A stretch of DNA of 64,000 nucleotides from the NCBI RefSeq assembly GCF_030028105.1, contig NC_092371.1, positions 233,800,031-233,864,030 on the forward strand, read 5' to 3'. The position numbers were made by a program, and so were the translations under genes. The notes under the pieces are model-generated. The model saw only the letters and a list, made by a program, of their open reading frames with translations. It made no database searches and was not told the DNA's origin. Positions 9,957 through 64,000 of this stretch are shown piece by piece. The stretch comes from Mobula birostris. Lineage: Eukaryota. Position 1 is the stretch's first letter; every line of letters begins with the position of its first letter.

Positions 9957-10232
9957 AAAGACAAGAAGTGCTTACAGTCATTCCAGCACGCGAAGCCTGA
10001 AAGATTTACTCTCTCCGGCTGCACAAGCAGAAGAAGTTATAGACCAATGTTCTGCGGTACATGCTCAGATTCCCGCTGCTGCGTCCCTAATCAACAAAAA
10101 ATAGTGAAAGTAGAATTTAACTGTACCGACGGAGGAATAAACATTTGGCAGATGATGTGGATCACATCTTGCAAATGTCAGCGAGTCTGTATTGATTCAG
10201 GGGACATATTCTCAGATCTGAAGCTGCTGTAG
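9957..10232 (+). CDS. CCN6: CCN6 terminal exon, C-terminal cystine-knot domain
   Basis: ccctaac branch point, T-rich tract, tttag acceptor, phase 0. KDKKCLQSF...SGCTSRRSYRPMFCGTCSDSRCCVP...WITSCKCQRVC...GDIFSDLKLL*; the ending matches CCN6 GDIFSELKIL. Confidence 0.95.
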   Translation, partial: KDKKCLQSFQHAKPERFTLSGCTSRRSYRPMFCGTCSDSRCCVPNQQKIVKVEFNCTDGGINIWQMMWITSCKCQRVCIDSGDIFSDLKLL

Positions 10233-45114: not shown

Positions 45115-46288
45115 GCAGATGTAGTGTATATGGATTTTAGCAAGGCATTTGATAAGGTACCCCATGCAAGGCTTATTGAGGAAGTAAGGAGGCATGGGAT
45201 CCAAGGAGACATTGCTTTGTGGATGCAGAACTGGCTTGCCCACAGAAGGCAAAGAGTGGTTGTAGATGGGTCATATTTTGCATGGAAGTTGGTAACCAGT
45301 AGTGTGCCTCAGGGATCTGTTCTGGGATCTTTACTTTTTGTGATTTTTATAAATGACCTGGATGAGGAAGTGGAGGGATGGGTTACTAAGTTTGCTGATG
45401 ACACAAAGGTTGGAGGTGTTGTGGATAGTGTGGAGGGCTGTCAGAAGTCACAGCGGGACATTGATAGGATGCAAAACTGGGCTGAGAAGTGGCAGATGGA
45501 GTTCAACCCAGATAAGTGTGAGGTGGTTCATTTTGGTAGGTCAAATATGATGGTAGAATATAGTATTAAAGGTAAGACTCTTGGCAGTGTAGAGGATCAG
45601 AGGGATCTTGGGGTCAGAGTCCATAGGACACTCAAAGCAGCTGCGCAGGGTGACTCAGTGGTTAAGGCGGCGTACAGTGTATTGGCCTTCATCAATCATG
45701 GAATTGAATTTAGGAGCCAAGAGGTAATATTGCAGCTATATAGGACCCTGGTCAGACCCCACTTGGAGTACTGTGCTCAGTTCTGGTCGCCTTACTACAG
45801 GAAGGATGTGGAAGCCATAGAAAAGGTGCAGAGGAGATTTACAAGGATGTTGCCTGGATTGGGGAGCATGCCTTATCAGAATAGGTTGAGTGAACTCAGC
45901 CTTTACTCCTTGGAGCGACGAAGGATGAGAGGTGACCTGATAGAGGTGTATATGATGATGAGAGGCATTGATCATGTGGATAGTCAGAGGCTTTTCCCAG
46001 GGCTGAAATGGTTACAAGAGGACACAGGTTTAAGGTGCTGGGGAGTAGGTACAGAGGAGATGTCAGGGGTAAGTTTTTTTTTTACTCAGAGAGTGGTGAG
46101 TGCGTGGAAAGGGCTGCCGGCAACGGTGGTGGAGGCGGATACGATAGGGTCTTTTAAGATAGGTATATGGAATTTAGTAAAATAGAGGGCTATAGGTAAG
46201 CCTGGTAATTTCTAAGGTAGGGACATGTTCACCACATCTCTGTGGGCCGAAGGGCCTGTATTGTGCTGTAGGGTTTCTATGTTTCTAA
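45115..46288 (+). mobile_element. CR1 LINE, young 5'-truncated copy with long open RT frame
   Basis: ORF 45124..46185 (353 aa) YMDFSKAFDKVPH...SVPQGSVLG...KFADDTK...LVRPHLEYC; (tttctatg) tail; inserted in a LINE tail with taagca on both sides. Confidence 0.93.
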
Positions 46289-46709
46289 GCAATAAAGAGA
46301 ACATGAGATGAAGAAATGATGGGAGGAAAGTGTTGGATTGATTTCGAGTAGGTTAAAAGGTCAGTATAACATCATGGGTCGAAAGGCCTGTATTGATCTA
46401 TGTTCAGCTTTAAATCACCAGTTCTTTGTGATTCTCCGACCAGTGAAAACAGCTCAACATCTGCCTTGTCAAGCCCGGTAGGATTTTTGTAGACTTGAAT
46501 AAAGCCACCTCTCATTCAAACTGTGCAAATATAATAAGAGTTGTAAAGAGTCTTTGAAAGTGAGTCTGGAGGTTGTGGAATACCTTCAGAGTTTGCTCGA
46601 GTTTTAAGCTTGGCGGACGGGGCACTGGCGAGGCGCTCGCTAGCAGCACGGGACGCGGCGAGCAAGCCAGCTGCAGCGAGTGAGGACGAAAGGCCGTACT
46701 AGGGCTTAC

Positions 46710-46734
46710 CTTGCACCACCACCGACTGGGTCAT
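46710..46734 (-). CDS. TUBE1: Tubulin epsilon, coding exon 1 (MTQSVVVQ)
   Basis: ATG ACC CAG TCG GTG GTG GTG CAA G followed by gtaag; TUBE1 N-terminus, located in the CpG island. Confidence 0.95.
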
Positions 46735-47396
46735 AGCGTGCAGCCGGCGGACGCAGCTCCCCTGTCCGCGAACGAACCATCCACCTCCCTCAGCAGCCTT
46801 TCTGCCGCCACTTCGCGCGTTTCGCGCGCTGGTTGCTGGAGGGAGCGTCTGACGTCACGTTGCCCTGGAAACCGGAACAGCGGCATGGGCGGGGCAAGAG
46901 AGGGAATCCCAGCACGTGACCAGAGTGCACCACCGACTCACCAAATACACACACACACACACGCCATCTCCGAGCTGTCAGCTCTCTAAACTCACCCCCA
47001 CTACTCTGGTTTACCGCTGTCATCATTTACGTCTGCTTGCACCAATTTCTTCACTGACAGACTCTATAATTTTTCGCAACCTACTCTGACTGCAAAAATG
47101 TCTGCAAGTCAGAACTGTCTGCGCTGATACATAGGTCTGCGGGACAATATCCATTTTAATTGGAATTAATTCTAGTGGTTTTGTGTGAAACAACTTTCCG
47201 TGGCTGAAAAAAAAGAACTACGAGTTGGTGCCTGTGGATACACTCAGATTTTCTTTGCCACGGTGGCAGTGATACCTGAAGCTAGGGCCTCCAGATGGCA
47301 GAGCGAAGTTACTGACCGTACGTAGACTTTCTAACTAGCCCAAACTGATGTCATTCCACGGTTGTAGGGTCGGAGATATAACACAGTGCCTGAAGA

Positions 47397-47407
47397 ATGG
47401 CGGAGAA
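47397..47407 (+). CDS. BSD domain-containing protein 1-like (probable BSDC1 paralogue), coding exon 1
   Basis: ATG GCG GAG AA followed by gtaggt; an 11-nt MAE start exon as recalled for BSDC1. Confidence 0.8.
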
Positions 47408-47496
47408 GTAGGTGTCTCCCTCAAATATCTTTTTAACTCACTACAAAATAGCTATCAATTAAACTGCTATATTCATTTGTACCGATTCCTTTACAG

Positions 47497-47545
47497 TTGG
47501 TGGGGAAGCTGGATTCATCAGAACGTCGCGAAGGCGAAAGCCAAG
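47497..47545 (+). CDS. BSDC1-like exon 2
   Basis: ttacag acceptor, gtaaat donor. (N)WWGSWIHQNVAKAKAK versus BSDC1 WWRSWLQQSYQAVKEK; follows an 89-nt intron. Confidence 0.85.
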
Positions 47546-49008
47546 GTAAATCAGATTTCTGGCCGAACGTCGCCGAACGATCGTAAGATTGCTTCGGAGT
47601 TGTAATCACAGTAATTTTGGTAATGGCTTTGCTAAGGGTTTTAACAACTTGTTTATTTGCGCTTTGTGTCGATAGTCATCTTTGTTATTTGCGCGGGCCC
47701 CACCGCATTGCACTGGTGAATTGGAAACAATGATGAGTCATTTCCTCTATCTGTTGCTGAGATGATTTTTCAGAGCTCTTAGTGCTTAAATCGATTTTCA
47801 ATCTCTTTTTTTTAATGCCTCGTCTTCGGGTTTTTAACTCAAGTAAAGGAGTCAAATGCTATCGTTTTGATGACAGCTGTACCGTCACTCCGCTTTTCCT
47901 AGCACAATCATATTCTTGTTTTCCTCCAGTGATTTTGAGTAGTTTGAAGTAAATTTCTTTCCAACATCATCACAAATTTATCTTCCGGGCTATCGAGTCT
48001 ATATGTTTCAGCGGGAGAAGTCCGCCGAACCAGACCATTTCGAGCCTCGCTATGATCCACGTCACTTAAAATCACCTATTCTCTGACTGAATACACGCTT
48101 TATTCGTCAATCCTGTTAAAGAGGGAATGTTGTTGCATTATATAGACCTACTAATAAACAATTTGTTAGTTAAATCTATTACAGTTCATTGGTTCAGTAT
48201 ATGGACTTTTAAATAAGTTTACAGTTGTGACAGAAAATACCCCACAGGTAATCAGTAAATTGATGTGGTGTTTTGGGTACTGGTTCCAGTTGAACAAACG
48301 ATTTAGACTCATCATGGAATTAAACAGCTCACCCCACCAAATCTCTGCTGATACAAGTTCAAGTTTATAGTTGTCCAACCATACACATGTATACGGTGAA
48401 ACAAAACATCATTGGGGGGGAGGGGGGAGACAAGGTACATAGAGTGGCACACGGCACATATAGTTACAATCCAACACAAAAAGTCACAGAGTAAAAGAAG
48501 CCCTGAAAGAAAAAGAAGAGCATGAAGCCTTGAGTGCCACCACATGAAGATTGACAGGTTGACATAAAGTGTCAGGTTTATATAAGGCAATATAATGACT
48601 AATTAGATTAGATTAGATTCAACTTTATTGTCATTTTGCCAAGTACAGATACAAAGCCAATGAAATGCACTTAGCATCTGACCAGAAATGCAAAGAATAG
48701 TGTTATTTACAAAATAACTGTGAATAAAAAAGTGCTACAGCACACAAATATAAAAGTACTGAGACAGTACAATACGGATGCAATATTGCTTAGTGCTGTG
48801 ATGAGGGGTTCAGCAGTGTCACAGCCTCAGGGAAGCTGAACCTGACATATGGTATTTTGTTTTAATAATGTCCAGCAGGGTCTTGCGGTCATAAGAAAAA
48901 CATGTAAAGCAAAGACTTACACCATTTTTTGGACCTAGAAACATCATTGCAACTCAGTGCGCCACCATTTTCTTTAATTAATCTCGTTTATTTACTCCTT
49001 GGACTGTG

Positions 49009-50025
49009 GACTGGCAGACCACAGTACATGTGCTTGCAACACTGTGTGTCTGACAGAGAGATCAGCAGCACTGGGGCTCCACAGGGGACTGTCTTGTCTC
49101 CCTTTCTCTTCACCATTTACACCTCGGACTTCAACTACTGCACAGAGCCTTGTCATCTTCAGAAGTTTTCTGATGACTCTGCCATAGTTGGATGCATCAG
49201 CAAGGGAGATGAGGCTGAGCACAGGGCTACGGTAGGAAACCTTGTCACATGGTGTGAGCAGAATTATCTGCAGCTTAATGTGAAAAAGACTAAGGAGCTG
49301 GTGGTAGACCTGAAGAGAGCTAAGGTACAGGTGACCCCTGTTTCCATCCAGGGGTTCAGTGTGGACATGGTGGAGGATTACAAATACCTGGGGATACAAA
49401 TTGACAATAAACTGGACTGGTCAAAGAACACTGAGGCTGTCTACAAGAAGGGTCAGAGCCATCTCTATTTCCTGAGGAGACTGAGGTCCTTTAACATCTG
49501 CTGGATGATGCTGAGGATGTTCTACGAGTCTGTGGTGGCCAGTGCTATCATGTTTGCTGTTGTGTGCTGGGGCAGCAGGCTGAGGGTAGCAGCCACCAAC
49601 AGAATCAACAAACTCATTCGTAAGGCCAGTGATGTTGTAGGGATGGAACTGGACTCTCTGACGGTGGTGTGAGAAAAGAGGATGCTGTCCAAGTTGCATG
49701 CCATTTTGGACAATGTCTCCCATCCACTACATAATATACTGGGTGGGCACAGGAGTACATTCAGCCAGAGACTCATTCCACCGAGATGCAACACAGAGTG
49801 TCATAGGAAGTCATTCCTGCCTGTAGCCATCAAACTTTACAACTCCTCTCTTGGAGGGTCAGACACCCTGAGCCAATAGGCTGGTCCTGGACTTATTTCC
49901 TGGCATAATTTACATATTACTATTTAACTATTTATGGTTTTATTACTATTTATTATTTATGGTGCAACTGTAACAAAAACCAATTTCCCCTGGGATCAAT
50001 AAAATATGACTATGACTATGACTAT
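49009..50025 (+). mobile_element. Rex1/Babar-type LINE, young 5'-truncated copy B
   Basis: ORF 48929..49672 GAPQGTVLSPFLFTIYT...KFSDDSAIVG plus 49682..49879; (tatgac)3 tail. Confidence 0.92.
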
Positions 50026-52119
50026 TTCCTCCAAACTCTGTAATCTTCCCTCCTCCTCTCCTTTTCTTTCCCCTTAATCCAGTAATTATTCCTCCTTTGG
50101 TTAATTTATCTAGTTTTCCTTTTAATGATTACCATGGAATCTTGTTTCTTTGTTGTTTCATGCAGTGAATTTGTAAGCAGAGTAGCTTGTGTGTATTTTT
50201 CTTAGATCTTGTTTACTTTGTCTTACTATGATAATAATGTTAAGTTTAGTCTTCTGACACTGAATGTACTAATAGTGGAATTTAATGTAATTGTGAACAC
50301 TAATTGTTCTTTATCTTTTCCACTTTCAGTCCAAAAACTGGTAGACCTAACCATGTTTTAAATCTGATCATGTGTAACAAGGCCAAATTAATTAATAATC
50401 TCTTAGCAAAGGATGCTCTGGGGAAGAGTGATCAAAATGTAATAGGATTTCAAAATAAAATGTGAGAATCTACAGTGCACCCATTCAGATTACAATTTGT
50501 TTTGAAAAGTTACCCATTATAAAATGGTTTCCTGAGTAATAAATCTATAGCATCATCATAGAAACAGAACTAGTACCAGGAATGTGCTGTTTAGTGGATT
50601 ACCTTAGTGTGGAGATGAGTGATATCTTGCAATAATCTTACACTATTATATCTGAAATTAAAATACAAATTATTGTTGCAAACATCTTTCAGTAGACATC
50701 ATCATTCCATATGTTGTTCTTACCTCACAAATCATCTCTGGAGAAATTTACTTGTACTCATTCTAGTCTGTTAATGTTTCATTTTTAAAAAATAGCCATG
50801 AGTTAAAATTCCCTCTGTAACCTCAAACTCTTGATCTCTGTGCTTTTTATTATCCTTGTAACCCCAGAACTTCCCTGGGTTCCTCCAAGTCCAGTCCAGC
50901 GTAATGTTTAGCGATTGTACAGTCCTGTGCGAAAGTCTTGGACACTGTAGCTATATAGGGCTGTGGGACAGGTGGCAGAGAAGGAGTGCCGGGGGCGGGG
51001 GGGTGGTGCGGGTGTTGGCAGTGCATGGTACAGGCACACTGAGACAACAAGCAAGGTCATTTGATTCCAAACAATTGGTTTACTGATCATTACATGGTCT
51101 CTATGATGCTTCCTACTCCCTCCTCCTTTTCCCTTTTCCCAACCTTGATTCCCCTCTCCTTGTCCCCTTCCCATTCTCAATCCATAATATGGACCCATAT
51201 CAGAATCAGGTTTATCATCACTCATATATTTCATGAAATTTGATTTTTTTTCAGTACAATTCAATACATAAAGTTACTGTAGTACTTGCACAAAGTCTTT
51301 GGAGGCACACTAGCCATATATACTGTACTTTTTGCACAGTATCATATATGTAATAAAGACCCAGATTATTGCTGTAAACAGCTTTCAGTATAGTTAATTA
51401 CTGCCCGGTTGAGCTATGCTTGCTTAATATTCTATGATGAAAAGAAACAAAAAGGAGCAAAAGCTAATTGCAAACTTAACTGAGATATGATTTCCATGAG
51501 ACTTTCTTTGCCATGGATCACTGCGACACCACTCTTAAAGGGGAAGGAGGCATTGATAATGATATTTACCAATTGGCAAAGTGATTATAAGCAAATTAAA
51601 GTTTTATTGGGATTATAGAGTGAAAGCATGTAAAAGTAAATTAAAATGAACTGTGAAATTGTTATATTTTCTAATAAGTTTAAATGGAAAGTATTTAATT
51701 GACTGAGACTGAGGGATACATCAATGTTTAGTATATCTCCTTCGAGACTCTTAGCCATACAGAATAGAAGCAGGCTTTTGGTAAAATATATATTGTATTT
51801 GTCAGTTCGATTGTCAAACACTTATCTACACTAATCCCTTTCCTTTATTCTCCTCATCTTCCCATTTCTTCCCCTTTGCCTTCCGATTTCCGAATGGACA
51901 TTGAACATTGAACCTATTAGCACTACCTCACTACTTATTTTAAGTACTGATGAAGGGTCTTGGCCCAAAATGTCCATAGATGCCGCCTGGCCTGCCGAGC
52001 TCTCCCAGCATTTTGTGTGTGTTGCTTTGATTTCCAGTATTGGCAGATTTCCTCTTACCTATTTTTTTAATTTCTATTTTTGCATCACTTACTTAATTTA
52101 AATATTTCATATATATGTT

Positions 52120-52318
52120 GTTGTTGGTGAGTGCTGTCGACTCATGGCGATCCTATGGATAGTGTAGACATCCGAAGGGTTTTAATGGCAAGATACTGAA
52201 GTAGATTGCCAGGCTTTCTTCTGCAAAGATGTTGCTGCTGCCCAGGTTGGGACCCGGCCAGATGGAACCATGTGCAGCCAAGTCCAGTGCTGATGTGACT
52301 ACACAACCGGCTGGCCCG
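52120..52318 (-). mobile_element. tRNA-derived SINE with RTE-type (ACA)n tail
   Basis: Minus strand starts gggccagccggttgtgtagt and ends atcgccatgagtcgacagcactcaccaacaacaaca. Confidence 0.55.
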
Positions 52319-52335
52319 TAAATATATTCATACAC

Positions 52336-52548
52336 TTACTGTAATTCACACATCAAAGTTGCTGGTGAATGCAGCAGGCCAGGCAGCATCTCTAGGAAGA
52401 GGTACAGTCGACGTTTCAGGCCGAGACCCTTCGTCAGGAACCTCTTCCTAGAGATGCTGCCTGGCCTGCTGCATTCACCAGCAACTTTGATGTGTGTTGT
52501 TTGAATTTCCAGCATCTGCAGAATTCCTCGTGTTTACTGTAATTCACA
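52336..52548 (-). mobile_element. Palindromic Penelope-type insertion with hammerhead core in the hairpin loop
   Basis: Perfect inverted arms ~52347-52403 and ~52440-52496; 15-bp TSD ttactgtaattcaca (52336-52350 and 52534-52548); minus-strand CTGACGA...GAAAcgTC at 52437-52410. Confidence 0.8.
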
Positions 52549-52923
52549 GTTTGTTTCCTCTCTATTATTATGTTTTGCATTGTACCGCTACCAAAAAGAC
52601 AACAAATATCTGACATATGCAGGGTGATATTAAACCAGATTCTGATTCTGACTCCCTTGAATCACTCTTTCATGTATGCAGTCAGACCATTTCCAAATTG
52701 CACATCATCAGGGTGAAGGAGAAAACTCATGGGCTCACGAGGAAAACATGGACTACTCTACCTGGACAGCAATGGATATTGTGATTGAACCCAGTTTGTT
52801 GGAACTATGAAGAAACATCACAACTAGCTGCACCATTGTAACCACGTCCACTTCTATAAATCCTTCCTCTGGTATTATTGTTCCTGCTTATAGAATTAAG
52901 CACCCACAGTCACTGAGGAAAAT

Positions 52924-53146
52924 ACACATAAAATGCTGGGGGAACTCAGCAGGTCAGGTAGCATCTACAGAAAAGAGTAAACAGTTGGCGTCTTGGGCCA
53001 AGACTCTTCTTCAGGACAGCTGGTTCTCAACTGGGTCCTCATGAAGGGTCTTGGCCCAAAATGTTGACTGCTTGCTATGTCCATAGATGCTGCCTGGCCT
53101 GCTGAGTTCCTCCAGCATTTTGTGCGTGTTGCTTTAGATTTCCAGG
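52924..53146. mobile_element. Older palindromic Penelope-type insertion with two decayed hammerhead motifs
   Basis: aaaatgctgggggaactcagcagg...cctgctgagttcctccagcatttt inverted arms; similar structures at ~11270-11560 and ~62040-62250. Confidence 0.7.
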
Positions 53147-53941
53147 TGGGTAGGTTTTTTCATGTTCATATATTTGTGATGTGTATTACCATGAATATCT
53201 GTAAAAGGATTTATTTAACATTTGATCTTTTACCTTTGTACCAAAGAACACATTCACAGCGATATAATATTTCCTGTCTTTATTAGGTAAGTTCCCAGTG
53301 AAAAGCATGGGTAATTCCATGAAATCTTTCAGGGATGAGATTGCATTAAGTCTCCTTTGAAGAGATCATTTCAAGTAGTGGTTTCAGATTGTACAACTGA
53401 TCGGTACCTGTGGGAGCCGTGCATCTGTTCCCTATCTGCATTGTACTCTGTGTTGTGTGTTCATTATGTTTATTATGGTAACTAGTCACAAGAGTGGAGG
53501 GTGTGCTAAAAGCGAAGGGAATAAGTTACAAACTCTTGCTTATTTTGTGGCAGTTTGTAGCTTGGGACCGGCGGATGACATATCTTTTGCTGACAGCTCA
53601 GTTATGCTTAGCTCACACCAGGGTACGCTTAAATTTCGTCGCTTCAAGTTTGTATATTTGCTAATTGCTCAAAAAGGATCAAATGAAGGATTCAAATTTG
53701 GAGCAATTATTGAAGCTGAGGGTGCATCACGCAAGTAAACAAGTCTGTGGGGCTTTGTCTTTCGTTTTGTTTTGCTGCTACAGTATCCACGTGGATAGAG
53801 CGGTTGTAGGATATGAGCAGCCCTCAAACAAAAGTCATAGCTTTGATTCTGTCAGAATAAAGTATCATTGGATAAATTCAGATTTCATAATGATATTGCA
53901 ATCAGAATCGGATTTATTATCAGGAAAGTGTCATGAGTTCT

Positions 53942-54570
53942 GCGGGAGGAGAAGATGGTGGCACGCCTGCCTGTGCGCAGCCCTCCGGTGAAAAATGATA
54001 TCGTATCTGTTAAATAGGGGCCACAGACAATTCTGATTTGATGGAGAATAGATGTGAAAGCACAGAGGAACATCTGGAGAAATTTCTGAAACGCCCGTTC
54101 GCTGCTGTCGTTACTGTGTGGTCGTGAATCTTTCAGAGGTTAGGCCTCAAAATCCCCAGCCTTGCCTGCTTTTGGCGGCCGAGAAGGAGGTCGAATCGCT
54201 TGGACAGAGATGGCGCTCAGTGCTCGGTGTCAGAGAGCTGATCAGAGATCGAAGTTTTCGGATGACTCAGAGTTGGATTGTGGTCGGCATGGCAGGGAGA
54301 ATTTTTCTTCCTTCTCCCGTCTGCGTGAGATGTGGGACAGTTGAGAGACTTTGAACTTTACTGTGCTCATGGACTTCTTCATCAAGTTATGGTATTGTGC
54401 ACTGTTGTAACTATATGTTATAATTATGTGGTTTTGTCAGTTTTTTCAGTCTTGGTCAGTCCTGTGTTTTGTGATATCACACCAGAGGAAATAATGTATC
54501 ATTTCTTAATGCCTGTATTACTAAATGACAATAAAAGAGGACTACGTGTCTTCATAATCCTAATCCTAAT
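53942..54570 (+). mobile_element. Non-autonomous LINE-dependent element with CpG-rich head and (taatcc)n tail
   Basis: aagatggtggc start, CpG-rich 5' part, aaatgacaataaaag...taatcctaatcctaat end; inserted within another repeat tail. Confidence 0.55.
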
Positions 54571-54922
54571 ATTTGCTGTTTTGCAGTAACAGTACAGCAG
54601 AATACATGAAATATACGATAAATTGCAATAAGAAATGTATATAAAATGTAGTGCAAAAAGAGGGCTATATAATGAGCTAATGCTCATAGGTTTATAATCT
54701 GTTGTGACCACTGTGAGGAAGAAGTAGCTGCAAAAACAGTGTCCTATACCTCATCTCTGAATGCAGTAATGAGAAAGTGGTGGATGCCTTTTGAAGTTCC
54801 TCTCAGTGGATGGAACAGGTATATTGCTAAGGTGTTATGTCTGAACTGTGGAGAGTATAAGTGTTCAGGTTGAACTATATTTCAAAGTTAAATCTTTAAT
54901 TAAATTTCTTTTTAATTCACAG

Positions 54923-55039
54923 TCTGCAAAAGCCGTGGAACTTCTGAAGTGTGACCTGGCCGAATTCAGACAGGTCATCCAAAATGATACTGTGTCTACT
55001 ATTGCGGCCACAGCTTTAGCATTCAAAGAAAAGCTAAAT
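54923..55039 (+). CDS. BSDC1-like exon 3
   Basis: SAKAVELLKCDLAEFRQVIQNDTVSTIAATALAFKEKLN versus BSDC1 SSEALEFMKRDLTEFTQVVQHDTACTIAATASVVKEKLA; 117 nt, cacag and gtgag sites. Confidence 0.92.
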
Positions 55040-55104
55040 GTGAGTTTATAGCCAACATGCAAACCCACTGAATATTATTTGTTACAAAATGCACAACACT
55101 GTTT

Positions 55105-55652
55105 GAAGTGGCCACTTAATTAGGTACTCCTGCTCATTAATGCAAGTATCTAATTAGCCAATCATGTGGCAGCCACTCAATGCATAAAAGCATGCAGCCA
55201 TGGTCATGAGGTTCAGTTGTTTATCAGACCAAACATCAGAATGGGGAAGAAATGTGATCTAAGTGACCTAGGCTGTGGAATGATTGTTGGTGTCAGAAGA
55301 GTTGATCTGAGTATCTCAGAAAATGGTGATCTGGAATTTACATATACTGTAAAGTTTACAGTGGAAAAACAAACAAAAAAAAACATCCAGTGAGCAGCAG
55401 TTCCATGGACAAAAATGCCTTGCTATTGAGAGAAGTCAGAGGAGAACGGCCAGAATGGTTCAAACTGACTGGAAGGTGACAGTATGTTAAATAACTCTAC
55501 ATTACAACAGTGGTGTGCAGAAGAGCATCTCTGAATGCACAACATGTTGAAATTTGAAATGAATGGTCTACAGCAACAGAAGACCATGAATATAAATACA
55601 GTGGCTACTATTAGGTACAGGAGGTATCTAATAAAGTGGCCATTGAGTTTAT
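55105..55652 (+). mobile_element. Non-autonomous Tc1-like transposon
   Basis: Inverted ends agtggccacttaattaggtac / ctaataaagtggccattgag; transposase remnant MGKKCDLSDLGCGMIVGVRR (ORF 55166..55393). Confidence 0.82.
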
Positions 55653-56888
55653 AAACAAACGTAGAGGTTTCATTCACACATATTTATTGAGATATAGCAC
55701 AGAATAGGCCCTTCAAGCCCTTTGAGCCACGCCACCCAGAAATCTTCTGATTTAAGCCTAATCACAGGACAATTTACAATGACCATTTAACCTACTATCC
55801 ATTATGTCTTTCGATCATGGGAGGAAATGGGGATTTGATCAGAGAGTCTCTCTTTTCTTGGTTTTTCTCTCAGGATAGACTGCCCAGTCCTTTCTTTCCC
55901 CCTTCTGTTTAGAATAGTGTTTTTTTTTAATATAAAAATTGCTAATAGTCCTTCCTTTCTTCATAAATTGATAAGAGGAGAATGAATTAAATTCTTTTTT
56001 TTCTGTATTATACATTCTATATCAAATTTATACTTTGTAGACCAACATTATGTGTGATTATTTTACTTTTTGTATGTACTGTTATTGACATCTATACCAG
56101 AGATATTCTCCTCCTGTTTGATAAACACTTTTTTTTAAATCAATAAAAAGATTGAAAAAATAAAGAAAGGAAACGGGAGGACCCAGAGGAAACCCATGCA
56201 GTCATAGGGAGATTGTACAAACTCCTTACAGGCAATGGTGGGAATTGAAACCAGGTCATCTGTACTATAAAGTATTGTGCTAACCACTACGCTACCATGC
56301 TGCCTGAAACCCAAAATAAAATGCAGTTAGATTTTTCGAGTATTTTGTGTCCCACAACAATGTAATAGCAACATTATGAATCTGAGTTTTGAAGTATACT
56401 GTGACATCAAATATGAAATCAGTAGGAATCCAATAACTTTCTGTTATTTGGATAATTGATTTTTCAACCACATGACATTAAGTTGCAGTCAGTTTTGTTC
56501 TTGTGTGTAAGTTGGACCAGACTCATTTGTCACCAAAGTAATGCTAATTGTAGACCAAGGTTTCTTAAGCTTTTTAATGCCATGGACCCCTTTGGCAGTC
56601 CAGTGAAGCCTATGAACCTTTTCTATTGTATCAACTGTAAAGTGATATGAAAATACCTGTGATTTTATTGGTGACAATGTCACAGGTTTTGATAATACTA
56701 CTGTAGTTTGCTGCCTATATTCATAAATGAGGAAATGCTAAATTTCAGTTAAAGGTTAGTGACAATAAAGATGTAAATTTTCCCCATCTAACTTCACAGA
56801 CCCCCGAGGGTTCTGTGGACTCCCTGGTTAAGAACCCCTGCTGTAGAACAACAGTAGGAATTATGTTGGTACTTCCCCTCTCTTCTAG

Positions 56889-57056
56889 GTTGAGGAGTCC
56901 TCAGAAGGATGCCATAGGGTCAGCAAAGGGATTTCAAGTTTTCTTGGAGCCATCTCAGAAGCATTTGCTCCTGTGGTAGAAGAAACACACACACCTCATG
57001 TGAGCACAGTCAAGGGCACTCGGTTGAAAATTGCCGACTCTTATGATGGCATTAAG
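56889..57056 (+). CDS. BSDC1-like exon 4
   Basis: VEESSEGCHRVSKGISSFLGAISEAFAP...DSYDGIK versus BSDC1 KKGLSDFLGVISDTFAP...EPYDGTK; 168 nt, phase 0-0. Confidence 0.9.
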
Positions 57057-57143
57057 GTACGCATACTACTAGTAATTATAGAATGGAAGAGCAGGAATTA
57101 AATAAAAGGTAACCATTTCATAATGAATATTTGTATTCCATAG

Positions 57144-57198
57144 ATTCGTTTGTGTAATCTTCAGGCTGATCCAGCAACATACTGTGCTAAACCAGATG
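57144..57198 (+). CDS. BSDC1-like exon 5
   Basis: IRLCNLQADPATYCAKPD versus BSDC1 ARLYSLQSDPATYCNEPD; 55 nt, gtaag donor; follows an 87-nt intron. Confidence 0.92.
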
Positions 57199-57997
57199 GT
57201 AAGATACATCTAATCTAAAGTTCAAAGTAAATCTATTATCAAGGTATGTATATGTCACCATATACTATATAGATTTTTCGTGCAGTTATTCACAGTATAA
57301 AAAAGACATACAACAGATTCAATGAAAATGACACAGGCAAAGACAGACAAACAATCAATGTGTAAAAGAAGACAAACTGTGCAAATATAAAATTAAATTA
57401 ATAGGTAAATAAATACTACTGAGAACATGACTTGCAGAGTTCTTGAAAGCGAATCCCTGGGTTATGGAACATTATTTAAAACTGAAATGATTAAAACTTA
57501 AATATCCAATCTATAATAGTGCTGTAACTAAAATAATCCTTCCAAAAGTTTCAGCTCCCATATTCTAGCTTTTGTTACCTGATTGTTTTCTGTGCTGTTC
57601 ATCACAAATACTCAAATGGAGAAAAGCAGTGGCCTGCTTCGTTCTGTTTTCCTCCATCTAAATCATCATCGTTGTGTGCCATGTCGTTTGACATAGGTGG
57701 TCATGCTCTCATGGCCGCGATTGTTCTTGGCAAATTTTTCTACAGAAGTGGTTTCCCCATTGCTTTCTTCTGGGCAGTGTCTTTACAAGACAAGTGATCC
57801 CAACCATGATCAATACTCTTCCGAGATTCTGTGCCTGATGTCAGTAGACTTGTGATGTGCACCAGCTGCTCATACGACCATCCACCACCTGCTTACATGC
57901 CTTCACGTGGCTCTGATTGGAGGGGCTAAGCAGGTGCTACACCTTGCCCAAGGGTGACCTGCGGGCAAGCAGAGGGAAGGAGTAATGTACACTTCCT

Positions 57998-58545
57998 TTG
58001 ATGGTTAGGCCACACTTGGAGTGCTGTGTCCAGTTCTGGTCACCTCACTATAGGAAGGATGTGGAAGCATTGGAAAAGGTACAGAGGAGATTTACCAGGA
58101 TGCTGCCTGGTTTAGAAAGTATGCATTATGATCAGAGATTAAGGGAGCTAGGGCTTTACTCTTTGGAGAGAAGGAGGATGAGAGGAGACATGATAGAGGT
58201 GTACAAGATAATAAGAGGAATAGATAGAGTGGATAGCCAGCGCCTCTTCCCCAGGGCACCACTGCTCAATACAAGAGGACATGGCTTTAAGGTAAGGGAT
58301 GGGAAGTTCAAGGGGGATATTAGAGGAAGGTTTTTTACTCAGAGAGTGGTTGGTGCGTGGAATGCACTGCCTGAGTCAGTGGTGGAGGCGGATACACTAG
58401 TGAAGTTTAAGAGACTACTAGACAGGTACATGGAGGAATCTAAGGTGGGGGCTTATATGGGAGGCAGTGTTTGAGGGTCGGCACAACATTGTGGGCCGAA
58501 GGACCTGTACTGTGCTGTACTATTCTATGTTCTATGTTCTATGAG
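57998..58545 (+). mobile_element. CR1 LINE 3' fragment, young
   Basis: ORF 57998..58474 is open to the natural ORF2 end; (ttctatg)3 tail. Confidence 0.92.
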
Positions 58546-58662
58546 ATGTGTCTCCAACCTGCTGCCTGACTATTCAATGTAAAATCTAATTTTTGCATTC
58601 CTATTTATTCCTGATTTGTTTTGATTTTAATTTGAAAAAGCAATGTATACAATAGTATAGAC

Positions 58663-58852
58663 CAGGGGTCGGCAACCTTTTTGCCTCTGTGGGACAGATC
58701 ACGTATTAATGAGCGTATGGTGGGCCAGATAAATGCCATAAAAACTTGAAATATGGGAATTACCCATTTAAATACATCTAGTTATGTTTTGCCTCAAATT
58801 AATGAATAACTCATGCTCAAAAATCATTTGTGCTTCAGGTTGCCGACCCCTG
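58663..58852. mobile_element. hAT MITE, 190 bp
   Basis: Perfect 16-bp terminal inverted repeat CAGGGGTCGGCAACCT; 8-bp TSD gtatagac/gtatagat. Confidence 0.88.
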
Positions 58853-59304
58853 GTATAGATAATATTAATTTTGACGTTGTGGAAACCTAGAATTTCTGTA
58901 GTTGTGAAGCAGCTTTTATAAAGACATCAGAAATCACCATGAATATTAATGAGTTGTGCGAATACCTAATCAGGAATACAAAATAACCTATTGCATGTAA
59001 TCTAAAAATTGTGTAGTCACTTTTAGGCTATTAATATAACCATTGCTTTCATCTCATCAATAATAAGGTAACAAAGGAAAAAAGAGCTTCCATTAATATA
59101 TACATGCAGATGACTCCTGTAATGAAACATTACGTACGAGGGTGAATATAACTGGCAATATCCAGTGTTGATCACTCTTATTAGAATTGATCAGCCGCAC
59201 AAAGAAGAGATAATTTAGTTATAATGAAGAAAAGATTACCATGCCTCATAATTTGGTTTATTATGGTAATTAGACTGCAGACTGCAAAGAAGTAGTGATG
59301 GACA

Positions 59305-60525
59305 AGATTCAAAGTAAATATATTATCAAAGTACATATATGTCACCACTTACAGCCCTGAGAATCATTTTCTTGCGGGCATACTCAATAAATCCAATAAC
59401 CGTGTTAGGATCAATGAAAGCGCACTAACAGGGCACACAACCAATGTGCAAAAGACAAGAAACTCTGCAAATGCAAAATAAAATAGAAAAACAAAATAAA
59501 TAATTAAAATAATAATATGTTTGAGCTGTGAAAAAACAAAAATACAATAACAATAATAATAACAAAAGTAATAAATATCAAGTACATGAAATGAAGAGTT
59601 TTTGAAAATGAGTCCATAGGTTGTGGGAATAGTTCAGCGATGAGGTAGTGAAGTTGAGTGAAGTTATTCCCTCTACTTCAAGAGCTTGATAGTTGAGTGG
59701 TAATAATTGTTTCTGAACCTGATGGTGTGAGTCCTGAGGCTCCTGTATCTTCTTCCTGATGTCAACAGTGAGAGGAGAGTATAATCCGGGTAATGGGGGT
59801 CCCTGATGATGGATGCTGCTTTCCTACAACAACACTCCATGTAAATGTGCTCAGTGGTAGCTTTCACTGTGATGGACTTCTTGTAGGATTTTTCAGTTAA
59901 GGGCATTGATGTTTCCATAGTAGGTTGTGATGCAGCCAGTTGGTACACTGTCCACCACACATCTATGGAAGTTTGTCGAAGTTTTAGATGTCGTGCTGAA
60001 CCTTCACAAATTCCTAAAGAAATAAAGGTGCTGCTGTGTTTTCTTCATAACTTCACTTACATGCTGAGCTCAGACAGATTTTCTGAAATAATAACACCGA
60101 GGAACTTAAAGCTTTGATGAGGGCTTGTACATGGACCTCTGGGTTTTCATCACTTGAAGTCAATAATCAGCTTCTTGGTCTTGCTGACAGTGAGTAGGAG
60201 ATTGCTGTTATGGCCCACTCAGCCAGGTTTTCAATCTCCCTCCTACATGCTGATTCATCACCACTTTTGATTCAGCCTACGAGAGTGGTGTCATCAATGA
60301 ACTTGGATGTGGTATTGGAGTTGTGCTTTGGCACACAATCATAAGTGTAAAGTGAGTAGAGCAGGGGGCTAAAGACACAGTCTTGTGGTACATCTGTGCT
60401 GATGGAGGTTGTGGAGGAGATGTTGTTGCCAATCCCAGCTGAGTGGGGTCTGTAAATGAGGAAATTGAGGATCCAATTGCAGAAAGTGGTATTGAGGTCT
60501 AGGTCTTGATTATTCATTAGTTTTG
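59305..60525 (-). mobile_element. Rex1/Babar-type LINE, degenerate RT and 3' UTR
   Basis: ORF 60272..60589 CNWILNFL...VPQDCVFSPLLYSLYT...KFIDDTTLVG and ORF 59673..59960. Its 3' tail recurs at ~10860, 33378, 44920 and 57220. Confidence 0.82.
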
Positions 60526-61599
60526 AGGAGACAAGAATTCTATTATAATGATATATGTACTGAGATTTTTTAAACAGCTTGGAGTACAAAAGGAGAGATA
60601 TATACTTAAGTAATTGTAGTTAGAATTTCTAGTTCAGGTTTATTGTCATCTGACTGTACATATACACAACCAAATGAAATAACATTCCTCTGGACTATGG
60701 TGCACTCACAAAGCATATATCACACTCAGCACATAAAACAAGTTCAATAAGTTAATAAAATATAAATATAAATTATGTATTATTATCATGAAATAAGTTA
60801 ATAAAATATAAATCAAAATGCATGTAGTGCGCAGCACAGGTAAACGGTAAGCATATTCTATATTTAATTTGAATTACTATGATAATTTGATGGTGGGAAG
60901 GCACGAGTAAGAATGTTTAAAAAAAATATTGAGTAGAATGGTCCCACGGATGGAGAATTTCATTTATGTGAATAGACTGGAGAAGATAGGATAGCCCTAC
61001 TTAAAATGGAGAAGGTTAGAAGGATATTATCAATGGTCCAGACAGGAGAAGGATGAGAAACTATTTTTATTGGCTGTGGTGTTAAAAAGCAAAATCCGCA
61101 TTTCTGGGGAAAAGAACAGAAAGTGATGAGGAAACAATAATTTCATGCAATGATCAAAAAAAGGCCACTGACTCAGAATAGAAGAACAATCCTTTAGATC
61201 AGAAATGAGGTGGAATTTCTTTAGCCAGAAGGTGGTAAATCTGTGAAATTCATTGCCACAGACAGCTGTGGAGGCCAGGTCAATGGATAGATTTAAAGCG
61301 AGATTGAAAGATTTTTGATTAGTAAGGGTGTCAAAGGTTATAGGGCGAAGGTAGGAGAATGGGCTTGAGAGGGGAAAATAAATCAGTCGTTCTGCCCCTC
61401 TGTCTTATGGTCTTATGATTATACTGATTTGGAATTTGTTGTGTGAAGGGATGGTGAAGTGAGATTCATTCATTCCTTTCTAAAGGAAATAAAATAGATA
61501 CTTCAGGAATCAATGGGAAACTTTGACACTTTGAGGAAAGAGTTACAAGGTGAGACTAATCAGATTGCTCTGATAGAGAGTTGATACAGGTTGTCACCA

Positions 61600-61794
61600 T
61601 GTGTGCTGGCAATATCAGAGAAGTATGGAAGAAAGACAGACCCCGATGTAGAGACGGCAACTAGAGTTTATTTATAATAATTCCAGAAGAATGTCGGTGG
61701 CCCGCCCAAGCTACAACGCTAGAAGTAACATTCTCAAAACTAAGACCCTGCTGTTAGTGCTAATTGGACATCTGCTTAAATAATACAGCTAACA
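61600..61794 (-). mobile_element. Possible short solo LTR
   Basis: TGT...ACA ends with minus-strand AATAAA ~70 nt from the end; no clean TSD found. Confidence 0.3.
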
Positions 61795-62583
61795 TGGAAT
61801 CCCTGAGCCTACCAAAATTGACAAGCACAAACAGGAATCAGTAGGAAACTGCATTTCAAAGAACAAGTTGCTCGAGATAAACACAATGAACTCCAAACTA
61901 TTGACGACTGTCATTAAACAACAATTAACCAATTCAGGTGCTCTAAGAACCTCAGAGCTCAATGCTCTCCATCGCCCCACACAGGCTCAGAGCTCCATAG
62001 ACAGGTTCTATATGCCTTCCTTCCACTGGAGATACAAAGCACTGCAGATGCTGGAATCTGGAGCAACAAACAATCTGCTGGAAGAACTTAGAGGACTGGG
62101 CTGCATTTGTGGGAGCAAAGGAATTGTTGACATTTTGGGTGAAAACCCTACATGAGTCCTGATGCAGGGTTTTGAACTGAAATGTGATCAATATATTTTC
62201 TCCCACAGATGCGTTTGACTTGCCGAGTTCTTCCAACAGATTGTTTGTGATGTCTTCTTTCAATAACTAGCAATAACATGACTACAGTACAATGCACAGT
62301 ACTTCATTAAACATTCAGTTGATTTACACCCTTTGTGGGTAGCTTGAAATTATAGGCTTCATTTCACTAAATAACCACGATTTAGCCTTTGAAAAGAACA
62401 ATCAAGAAAATTACCCCTGGGATTTGGGCACTTTACTAAGTCACCATGGATTAATAGTGAAAAAAACTTGATTGAAATATTTGATGTAACACTAAGAGTT
62501 TGAGCTTAAAAGATGACCTATTTTCAAGTGTTCTTTGAATTGTCTTACTTTTTTCCTTCAGTGTCATTCTTTTGTGTCCACAG

Positions 62584-62690
62584 AACAATATAATAACTGG
62601 CTGTCAGGCTTCGACTTGGAAAGTGAGAAGTTCACGATATCGAATCTCCTGGTTGACAGGACAGAAATAAGAGATCTTTACACAAAATTG
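62584..62690 (+). CDS. BSDC1-like exon 6 (start of BSD domain; acceptor position uncertain)
   Basis: (E)QYNNWLSGFDLESEKFTISNLLVDRTEIRDLYTKL versus BSDC1 ELFDAWLSQFCLEEKKGEISELLVGSPSIRALYTKM. The nearest phase-compatible AG is at 62582-62583. Confidence 0.85.
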
Positions 62691-63501
62691 GTATACTTTG
62701 TTTTAAGTAGTGATTGTGATCATTTAAGATGTCATATCTACAGTATGTTGCTTACAGTTATATCAATGCAAAAGTTGTTTCTTTTTTGATCTTCCTACCC
62801 CAAATAGCTTTTTATTGGTTTGAAAATAAAATTGGGCTGCACAGTAAGGGTATTCTATTTAAATGAGCTTTAGAAAATGATTGCTACATTTTGAAATATC
62901 TTCTTTAACTTTAAGATATTGTTTTTGCAAATTGAAAAAATACAATTGTCTTCTTTTGGGAAGCAATATTTCTACATAGACTCAATGGTTTGGTGCGACT
63001 ACAACTAGAGGCCATGGGTTAAGGGTGAAAGGTGAAATGTTTAAGAGGAACATGAGGGGAAGCTTCTTCCCTCAGACAGTGGTGAGAGTGTGGAATAGGC
63101 TGCCAGTGCAAATGGTGCGTGCAAGCTTGAGTTCAAAGTTTAAAAGAAGTTAGGATAGGTACATGGATAGTAGGAGAATGGAGGGCTATGTTCCTGGTGC
63201 AGGTCGATGGGATTAGGCAGTTTAAACAGTTCAGCAGGGACTAGATGGGCTGAAGGGTCTATTTCTATGCTGTATTTTTCTGTGACTCTATGACTCGTAG
63301 ATTAAACGATTAATCACGCATTTTGAAAGACTTGGGGTTAACCTTCAAAGTTCAAGGTACAAATTATGAATTTATAACCTTCCATTTTATATAATGCTTG
63401 AGAAGCATATTTTTATCAATAGATACAAAATATACATTTTTATACTAATTGCTCACATGTGTGTTCCTACCTGGCTTTAATACTTTACATGTTTATGACA
63501 G

Positions 63502-63570
63502 GTCCCGAGTGAAGTGGCTCATAATGACTTCTGGTGTCGGTATTTCTATAGAGTACATCAACTTCATCAG
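63502..63570 (+). CDS. BSDC1-like exon 7 (BSD domain FW motif); gene continues beyond the window
   Basis: VPSEVAHNDFWCRYFYRVHQLHQ carries the BSD-domain FWxRYF signature; gacag and gttag sites; 69 nt. Confidence 0.93.
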
Positions 63571-63594
63571 GTTAGCATAACAGTGCACGGAAAT

Positions 63595-64000
63595 TTCTTT
63601 TTCTTTTTAAATCTTTTTATTGAATAAGTATACAAAAGGGTAAGCCATATAGGCACTAATACACTGTTAGAATATAATAAAATTACAGGAGATATTAATA
63701 CAGAAAAGAAAGTGATGCAAACAATGTAATTTAAACATAACATACTAAGGTAACGTAATAGTATACTAATTTATATATATATATCAATAGAGAAAAGGGA
63801 AAAAAAAACCCCAAAAAAAACCCACCGTGCAACTAAACTAAAAGCAAAGCAAAGCAATGGACTAACTTGGAACCAAATAGAGTTAAAGAACTTAAAATCA
63901 CGTCCTCAAACCCGACCTCCATTAAAAACAGTAAAAAAAAACAAGAAGGGTATACAAATATGGAGCAAAAAAGAGAAGAAAAAAAATTACATTAAATGAA
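63595..64000 (-). mobile_element. 3' end of a LINE (L1/Tx1-like), running off the window
   Basis: Minus-strand caataaaaagatttaaaaagaaaaaag terminus with T-rich UTR; a similar tail on + at ~55835-56168. Confidence 0.5.

Follow-up and report, generated by a model that had tools for sequence, protein, structure and literature searches.

The genome of the ray Mobula birostris carries a gene for a BSD-domain protein beside a tubulin gene, in a stretch of 64,000 nucleotides on a large chromosome (contig NC_092371.1, here C3; C3:233800031-233864030; this whole stretch is called the window). The question raised by this locus is whether the gene is the BSDC1 of the ray, displaced and diverged, or a second member of the family. 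An earlier reading made from the letters of the window (the sequence-only reading) had taken it for a second vertebrate BSDC gene, retained from the early genome duplications and lost by mammals. We conclude, with a probability of about 0.82, that it is an intact, spliced, 11-exon BSDC1 paralogue at the matching site of a duplicated block, likely derived from the second round of vertebrate genome duplication (2R), retained by cartilaginous fishes and probably lost at an early stage of bony-vertebrate history. What is directly observed is how the exons are built, that contigs are spliced, that the genome holds another, conserved copy, how the flanking genes are ordered and in which taxa the protein is found.

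Gene structure and transcripts

The gene lies on the plus strand, and its body occupies positions 47397-64000 of the window, the remaining exons continuing beyond the window end. Exon 1 has a coding part of 11 nt (47397-47407), placed by its GT/AG boundaries, a contig match and the translation; exon 2 (47497-47545) measures 49 nt, compared with 64 nt in the BSDC1 copy described below, and corresponds to a gap of equal size in two contigs. Exon 3 (54923-55039, 117 nt, contig match) encodes a predicted helical N-terminal region. Exon 4 (56889-57056, 168 nt) has lost the BSDC1 loop motif P[DE]K.I.C[DS]V, exon 5 (57144-57198, 55 nt) encodes DPATYC, the BSD domain starts in exon 6 (62584-62690, 107 nt vs 116 nt in BSDC1) and exon 7 (63502-63570, 69 nt) continues it with FWCRYFY. 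Read from the sequence, these seven exons have canonical splice sites and encode 192 amino acids without a stop, exactly as the sequence-only reading had described them. Exons 8-11 follow on the same strand at extended coordinates 68473-68551, 69540-70019, 76966-77069 and 77160-77204 (79, 480, 104 and 45 nt).

The translation of the 11 joined exons equals protein P0001 (427 amino acids) letter for letter, and the source label of that record, ‘BSD domain-containing protein 1-like [Mobula birostris]’, is the annotation that had been predicted. The Pfam BSD domain is found at amino acids 139-196 with 59.6 bits, compared with a cut-off of 24.6, so the assignment to the BSD proteins holds; an atlas look-up gave BSD clusters only. 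Membership of the BSDC1 subfamily follows from the domain together with homology outside it and the exon structure. SYAP1/BSTA also has a BSD domain, but the match to the SYAP1 structure 1x3a is 13.5 bits (E 0.28), compared with 277 bits to gar BSDC1, which rules out a SYAP1 relative beyond the BSD domain.

Contigs from four runs of one study, presumed by guess to be RNA, were compared with positions 46600-56600. Two of these runs (X1 record 1 and X2 record 8) have exon 1 and exon 3 together in one contig, with 0 mismatches and a 49-nt gap, the size of exon 2, so that the junction check proposed by the sequence-only reading is borne out for exons 1 to 3, the part covered by the compared region. 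In X4 the matches to exons 1 and 3 fall in different records, and in X3 no match to either is listed. Contig X2 record 8 spans 46973-47407 with 0 mismatches and places an untranslated part of exon 1, on the plus strand, at 46973-47396 (at least 424 nt). This 5′ untranslated region contains three short upstream open reading frames of 9, 6 and 16 codons at 47098-47396. Intact exons, introns shared with the second copy and spliced contigs rule out a retrocopy or pseudogene.

A second copy and a duplicated block

A search of the genome with exon 3 returned one further locus, C34:755140, at 63%, and a lamprey BSDC1 query matched C34 and the window locus only. The C34 gene has 11 exons of 11, 64, 117, 168, 55, 116, 69, 82, 519, 104 and 33 nt. 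All ten intron phases (10/10) equal those of the window gene, as do the lengths of exons 1 (coding part), 3, 4, 5, 7 and 10, which marks the pair as a DNA-level duplicate with its introns. The exon 3 peptide is identical to that of C34 BSDC1 at 24/39 positions and, counted by eye, to that of aardvark BSDC1 at 24/39, in line with the 23/39 reported earlier for human BSDC1; over the core, the two ray proteins share 116/217 residues.

The C34 gene is the BSDC1 of this genome. It sits within the shark BSDC1 clade in our trees and has a TSSK-type kinase, a MARCKS-family gene, an HDAC and an LCK-type kinase within 1 Mb, whereas the window gene does not have this neighbourhood and is no one-to-one BSDC1 orthologue, since it falls in its own clade (100/99-100) and the diagnostic motifs are present in 0/19 proteins of its type. 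This conserved copy rules out a single translocated BSDC1. The paralogue shares with BSDC1 of jawed vertebrates the BSD domain, an N-terminal tryptophan helix, DPATYC, an acidic tail, 11 exons with identical phases and a FAM229 gene directly downstream; it differs in its place on a large chromosome beside a tubulin gene, in having no downstream TSSK-type kinase and in lacking the loop motif, EPDG and ELNSDSGKSTPS. The kinase is a single long open reading frame at C34:789880-790593 (minus strand), between BSDC1 and FAM229, which we take to be of the TSSK type; it is absent from the C3 block, and a search for a TSSK relic beside the paralogue, covering the window and a further 200 kb, found none at E<=1. 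Just upstream of BSDC1, about 33 kb at C34:700751-733500 is unusually CpG-rich (GC ~0.58, CpG observed/expected often >1.2), and may be a tandem array close to the end of the chromosome.

The flanking genes tie the two loci together. On C3 (250.7 Mb) the order is tubulin (-), paralogue (+, 233.85-233.88 Mb), FAM229 (+, 233.888), laminin-alpha (-, 233.966), MARCKS (+, 235.94) and HDAC1/2 (-, 236.12); on C34 (40.6 Mb) it is BSDC1 (+, 0.744-0.785 Mb), FAM229 (+, 0.802), MARCKS-family (+, 1.276), HDAC1/2 (-, 1.304) and a gene with an LCK/HCK-type SH2 exon (-, 1.394). Four gene pairs, BSD and three flanking, thus have equal order and strand, and searches with FAM229 and MARCKS each matched C3 and C34 only; the one-exon PDB searches do not tell HDAC1 from HDAC2 or LCK from HCK. 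Here, then, was the more conserved BSDC1 near HDAC1 and LCK that the sequence-only reading had said should be sought. Nor was either of the outcomes it had set against itself observed, a sole BSDC1 nested in the orthologue clade or broken downstream exons without transcripts, given the C34 copy, intact exons 8-11 and the spliced contigs.

Paralogous blocks with several ordered pairs, one on a large and one on a small chromosome, are what is expected of 2R ohnologues, which typically pair one large chromosome with one microchromosome, according to PMC8302630. In cattle FAM229B, LAMA4 and TUBE1 adjoin (PMC8454143), so the FAM229 copy is not specific to sharks. A skate supplement lists Tube1 on Leri_5C and ‘Bsdc1-2’ on Leri_26C.

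The place given to FYN in the paralogous block did not hold. No FYN-type SH2 exon is found near the paralogue locus in this genome; the FYN-type exons lie at C3:115494288-115499909, 118 Mb from the CCN/tubulin locus, which rules out FYN as the neighbour of the paralogue and partner of LCK, and the block is therefore BSD-FAM229-MARCKS-HDAC. By their motifs we take the SH2 exons on C3 to be FRK-like at 238.17 Mb, BLK-like at 215.2 Mb and FYN-like at 115.5 Mb. In human, FYN neighbours CCN6, and set against that adjacency the distance seen here amounts to a rearrangement in one lineage.

Taxonomic range

Two full-length protein searches gave the best 120 of 207 and the best 120 of 213 matches, and the statements of range below refer to these listed matches. 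The 154 proteins that were classified divide into 19 of the window type and 135 of the BSDC1 type, separated by at least 126 and at least 267 bits respectively; 13 of the 19 had served to build the profile. Seventeen of the window-type proteins are named, and all come from cartilaginous fishes (rays, skates, sharks and chimaera); two are unnamed. For 11 of the window-type species a BSDC1-type record is also present. Gar, bowfin, bichir, reedfish, sturgeon, teleosts, coelacanth, lungfish, frog, reptiles, birds and mammals gave BSDC1-type proteins only among these matches. When the 150 best-scoring cluster representatives (50% identity) were compared, none outside the known chondrichthyan set favoured the paralogue profile by over 39 bits, although clusters could hide members.

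The paralogue thus appears, from protein records, to have been lost across the sampled bony vertebrates. The claim of a loss in mammals stands in so far as no mammalian record is found among the matches listed, but mammals are too narrow a frame: since none of the bony vertebrates sampled yielded a window-type protein, the loss is likely to be much older than mammals.

Three observations concern individual records. For the chimaera paralogue the source label reads simply ‘BSD domain-containing protein 1’ despite a separate BSDC1-type record in the same species (P0017, P0058), likely an orthology misnaming. Narcine and Hypanus have BSDC1-type records only among the matches listed (P0029, P0033, P0055); their paralogue may have been lost, may be missing from the listing or may sit in a cluster represented by a relative. 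Both tarpon species have two BSDC1-type records each (P0284 and P0051; P0110 and P0043), with P0284 long-branched inside the teleost clade, likely a pair from the teleost duplication that is unrelated to the chondrichthyan paralogue.

The same range would be seen if the duplication were confined to the cartilaginous-fish stem, where BSDC1 with its introns would have been copied between the tubulin gene and FAM229B in an old paralogous block, and bony vertebrates would never have had the copy. The long stem branch of the paralogue also suits this account. It requires, however, an insertion precisely upstream of the paralogous FAM229 in the matching orientation, and FAM229B adjoins LAMA4 and TUBE1 in cattle too (PMC8454143).

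Age of the duplication

Three trees were built, of 48 rows by 431 columns, 29 by 259 and 26 by 259, the latter two from hand-chosen core columns with fewer rows. Lamprey, hagfish, amphioxus, tunicate, hemichordate and echinoderms served as outgroups, and SYAP1 rows were absent. The paralogue forms its own clade in all three (100/99-100), and shark and bony BSDC1 group together without it (81/95, 88/95 and 93/87), never with starred support. At the core columns, five join the paralogue with cyclostomes against a residue shared by shark and bony BSDC1, and the two other patterns have 0 and 0. An origin in the cartilaginous-fish stem thus faces 0 columns joining the two chondrichthyan copies against 5 joining shark and bony BSDC1, and its log-likelihood is lower by 13.3 and 9.9; taken with the gene order, this makes it improbable.

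Several results weigh against the history that we propose. Uniting the two chondrichthyan copies is not rejected by approximately unbiased (AU) tests (p 0.061 and 0.101); the paralogue was placed outside shark and bony BSDC1, as the sequence-only reading led one to expect of a tree, while a duplication in cartilaginous fishes only would also be compatible with the tree on its own. The best tree with invertebrates puts the paralogue outside cyclostomes (72/31), with a gnathostome-only clade at p 0.371. The branch to the paralogue is long, 0.43 compared with 0.11 for shark BSDC1, so that its position is possibly drawn toward the root. The absence from bony vertebrates is a statement about proteins (the best 120 of 207 and 120 of 213 matches) and not about genomes, and the runs that gave spliced contigs are RNA by guess only and from a single study. 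Finally, the fast-evolving, lost copy is the one on the large chromosome, the reverse of the trend in PMC10115646, which reports faster evolution and more loss for the beta segments of 2R. An AU test did not reject a grouping of the paralogue with bony BSDC1 either (p 0.211).

Because the AU tests leave a shark-only duplication standing, synteny carries the case: sequence favours a duplication before the split of cartilaginous and bony vertebrates, and the gene order bears most of the weight. An older duplicate, from the first round (1R) and before the cyclostome split, would accord with the best trees with invertebrate outgroups, which set the paralogue outside cyclostome and gnathostome BSDC1. 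The support for that placement is 54/56 and 72/31, however, the gnathostome-only alternative is 0.76 log units worse (p 0.37), and the pairing of a large with a small chromosome suits 2R; we hold this older origin to be quite improbable. With the gnathostome-only clade at that p value and such support for the outside position, sequence leaves 1R versus 2R unsettled, and 2R is likely on the chromosome pairing.

The preferred history, a 2R duplicate kept by cartilaginous fishes, would run as follows. An ancestral BSD-FAM229-MARCKS-HDAC1/2 block would have been doubled; the copy on the small chromosome would have become BSDC1, and the copy on the large chromosome, beside the tubulin gene, would have passed through a burst of change before the chimaera/elasmobranch split and stayed intact since.

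Sequence change and predicted function

In eight matched taxa, identity within the paralogue and within BSDC1 is respectively 78 and 97% at the N-terminus, 53 and 97% in the loop (86-112), 78 and 91% in the BSD domain, 48 and 68% in the linker and 84 and 92% in the tail. The loop motif, the EPDG extension of exon 6 and ELNSDSGKSTPS are found in 133, 133 and 132 of the 135 BSDC1-type proteins and in 0/19 paralogues each. The last of these is a serine-rich block just before the tail; lamprey and hagfish show a variant of it. Conservation of the acidic tryptophan tail extends from echinoderms to mammals, and its motifs are kept in 14-17 of the 19 paralogues, partial records counted.

A decaying or functionless copy might be suspected, since every region evolves faster than its BSDC1 counterpart and two conserved motifs are gone in 19/19. 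What makes this highly improbable is that the reading frame is open in the 17 named species, rays and chimaera among them, that conservation is strongest in the BSD domain and tail, and that spliced contigs exist.

BSDC1 itself is barely studied. It is listed as HIP1-binding, and its knockdown raises cell adhesion (PMC11079228). A structure model of the paralogue, of low confidence (mean pLDDT 53, pTM 0.29), has helices at 2-211, disorder at 213-389 and a short helical tail; the fold search with this model gave nothing at E<=0.001 and is uninformative. In kinesin-1 adaptors such as SKIP and calsyntenin-1, W-acidic motifs, in which D/E flank a tryptophan and L/M often stands at W-2, recruit kinesin light chains (PMC5450233). 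The paralogue resembles these adaptors in having two tryptophan sites, set apart from each other and in acidic surroundings, where a disordered region ends. Motifs of a similar kind are bound by delta-COP and AP ear domains, and human BSDC1 was reportedly among the positives of a 2011 kinesin-motif survey.

Given the conserved acidic tryptophan tail and the recruitment of kinesin by W-acidic motifs, the paralogue could be a cytosolic trafficking adaptor like BSDC1, a tentative assignment at nearly even odds drawn from sequence. A helical N-terminal half with the BSD domain would be joined by a long disordered linker to an acidic tail with W388, W419 and W422, whose predicted partner is kinesin light chain or a coat-adaptor ear. 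Against this, the tail tryptophans are without the L/M at W-2 that is frequent in W-acidic kinesin motifs (PMC5450233); W419 is flanked by E and E, W388 by N and D. Loss of the serine-rich block and of the exon 4 loop motif may have uncoupled the paralogue from whatever regulates BSDC1 there.

Promoter and neighbouring genes

The tubulin gene, which we take to be TUBE1 by the motif MTQSVVVQ, has its first coding exon at 46710-46734 on the minus strand; a later exon matches Pfam Tubulin, and the best PDB match of a tubulin exon is gamma-tubulin, scoring just 51 bits. Its ATG and that of the paralogue are 663 bp apart on opposite strands, with a CpG-rich stretch between them. The head-to-head promoter region (46501-47250, assigned to neither strand; CpG-rich windows at 46501 and 46751) contains CRE-, ETS-, GC-box- and E-box-like words, which are consensus matches only. 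Beyond the tubulin gene, at 9957-10232 (plus strand), lies a cystine-knot exon of the CCN family, presumably CCN6 by synteny. The head-to-head tubulin-family gene and the nearby CCN-type gene of the sequence-only reading are thus in place, with TUBE1 and CCN6 as putative names given by motif and synteny. Nine cystine-knot exons are related to the CCN exon of the window (C34:12329772 and seven other loci). Mammals have six CCN genes; some of the nine may be extra retained CCN paralogues. Intronic fragments of LINE-type reverse transcriptase and other high-copy repeats at 45115-46185, 48908-49900 and 58000-58540 are ordinary.

Downstream of the paralogue, FAM229 occupies extended coordinates ~82340-88130 (plus strand), followed by the laminin-alpha gene on the minus strand. 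It begins 5 kb past the stop codon of the paralogue and has a CpG-rich first coding exon of its own (~82250-82750, 88040-88130). In the ray the paralogue holds the TUBE1-facing promoter, and the CpG-rich start of FAM229B is 35 kb downstream; human FAM229B is head-to-head with TUBE1 via non-coding first exons. From the separate start of the ray gene and this human arrangement one might speculate, and we consider it doubtful, that the loss of this unnamed vertebrate gene (BSDC2) in the bony-vertebrate ancestor rewired the neighbourhood: FAM229B would have inherited the promoter of the dead gene, its untranslated exons perhaps being BSDC2 relics, while sharks would keep the state before the hand-over, together with an adaptor that has no serine-rich regulatory block.

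Significance

Retained chondrichthyan ohnologues are an uncommon but known class, and the paralogue is already in databases as BSDC1-like. We found no published description of it; most subscription papers fell outside our coverage, and a skate list of 68 differentially retained ohnologues and a catshark supplement may include the gene. The main text of PMC8455134 does not contain ‘bsd’, nor that of PMC11979771 ‘bsdc’. The apparent pattern of retention and loss is that of the 19 ohnologues retained by chondrichthyans and lost by bony fishes (wnt6b and cspg5 are named as retained) in PMC10115646, although here the fast, lost copy is on the large chromosome, contrary to the beta-segment trend given there.

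The finding holds no new kind of biology. It runs counter to the direction that loss usually takes after 2R, and it brings to light a probable gene of the jawed-vertebrate ancestor, concealed by names centred on human: ‘BSDC1-like’ or, in the chimaera, plain BSDC1. As a natural variant that keeps the BSD domain and the tryptophan tail and has dropped two motifs otherwise conserved from sharks to mammals, the paralogue flags the parts of BSDC1 that are worth testing.

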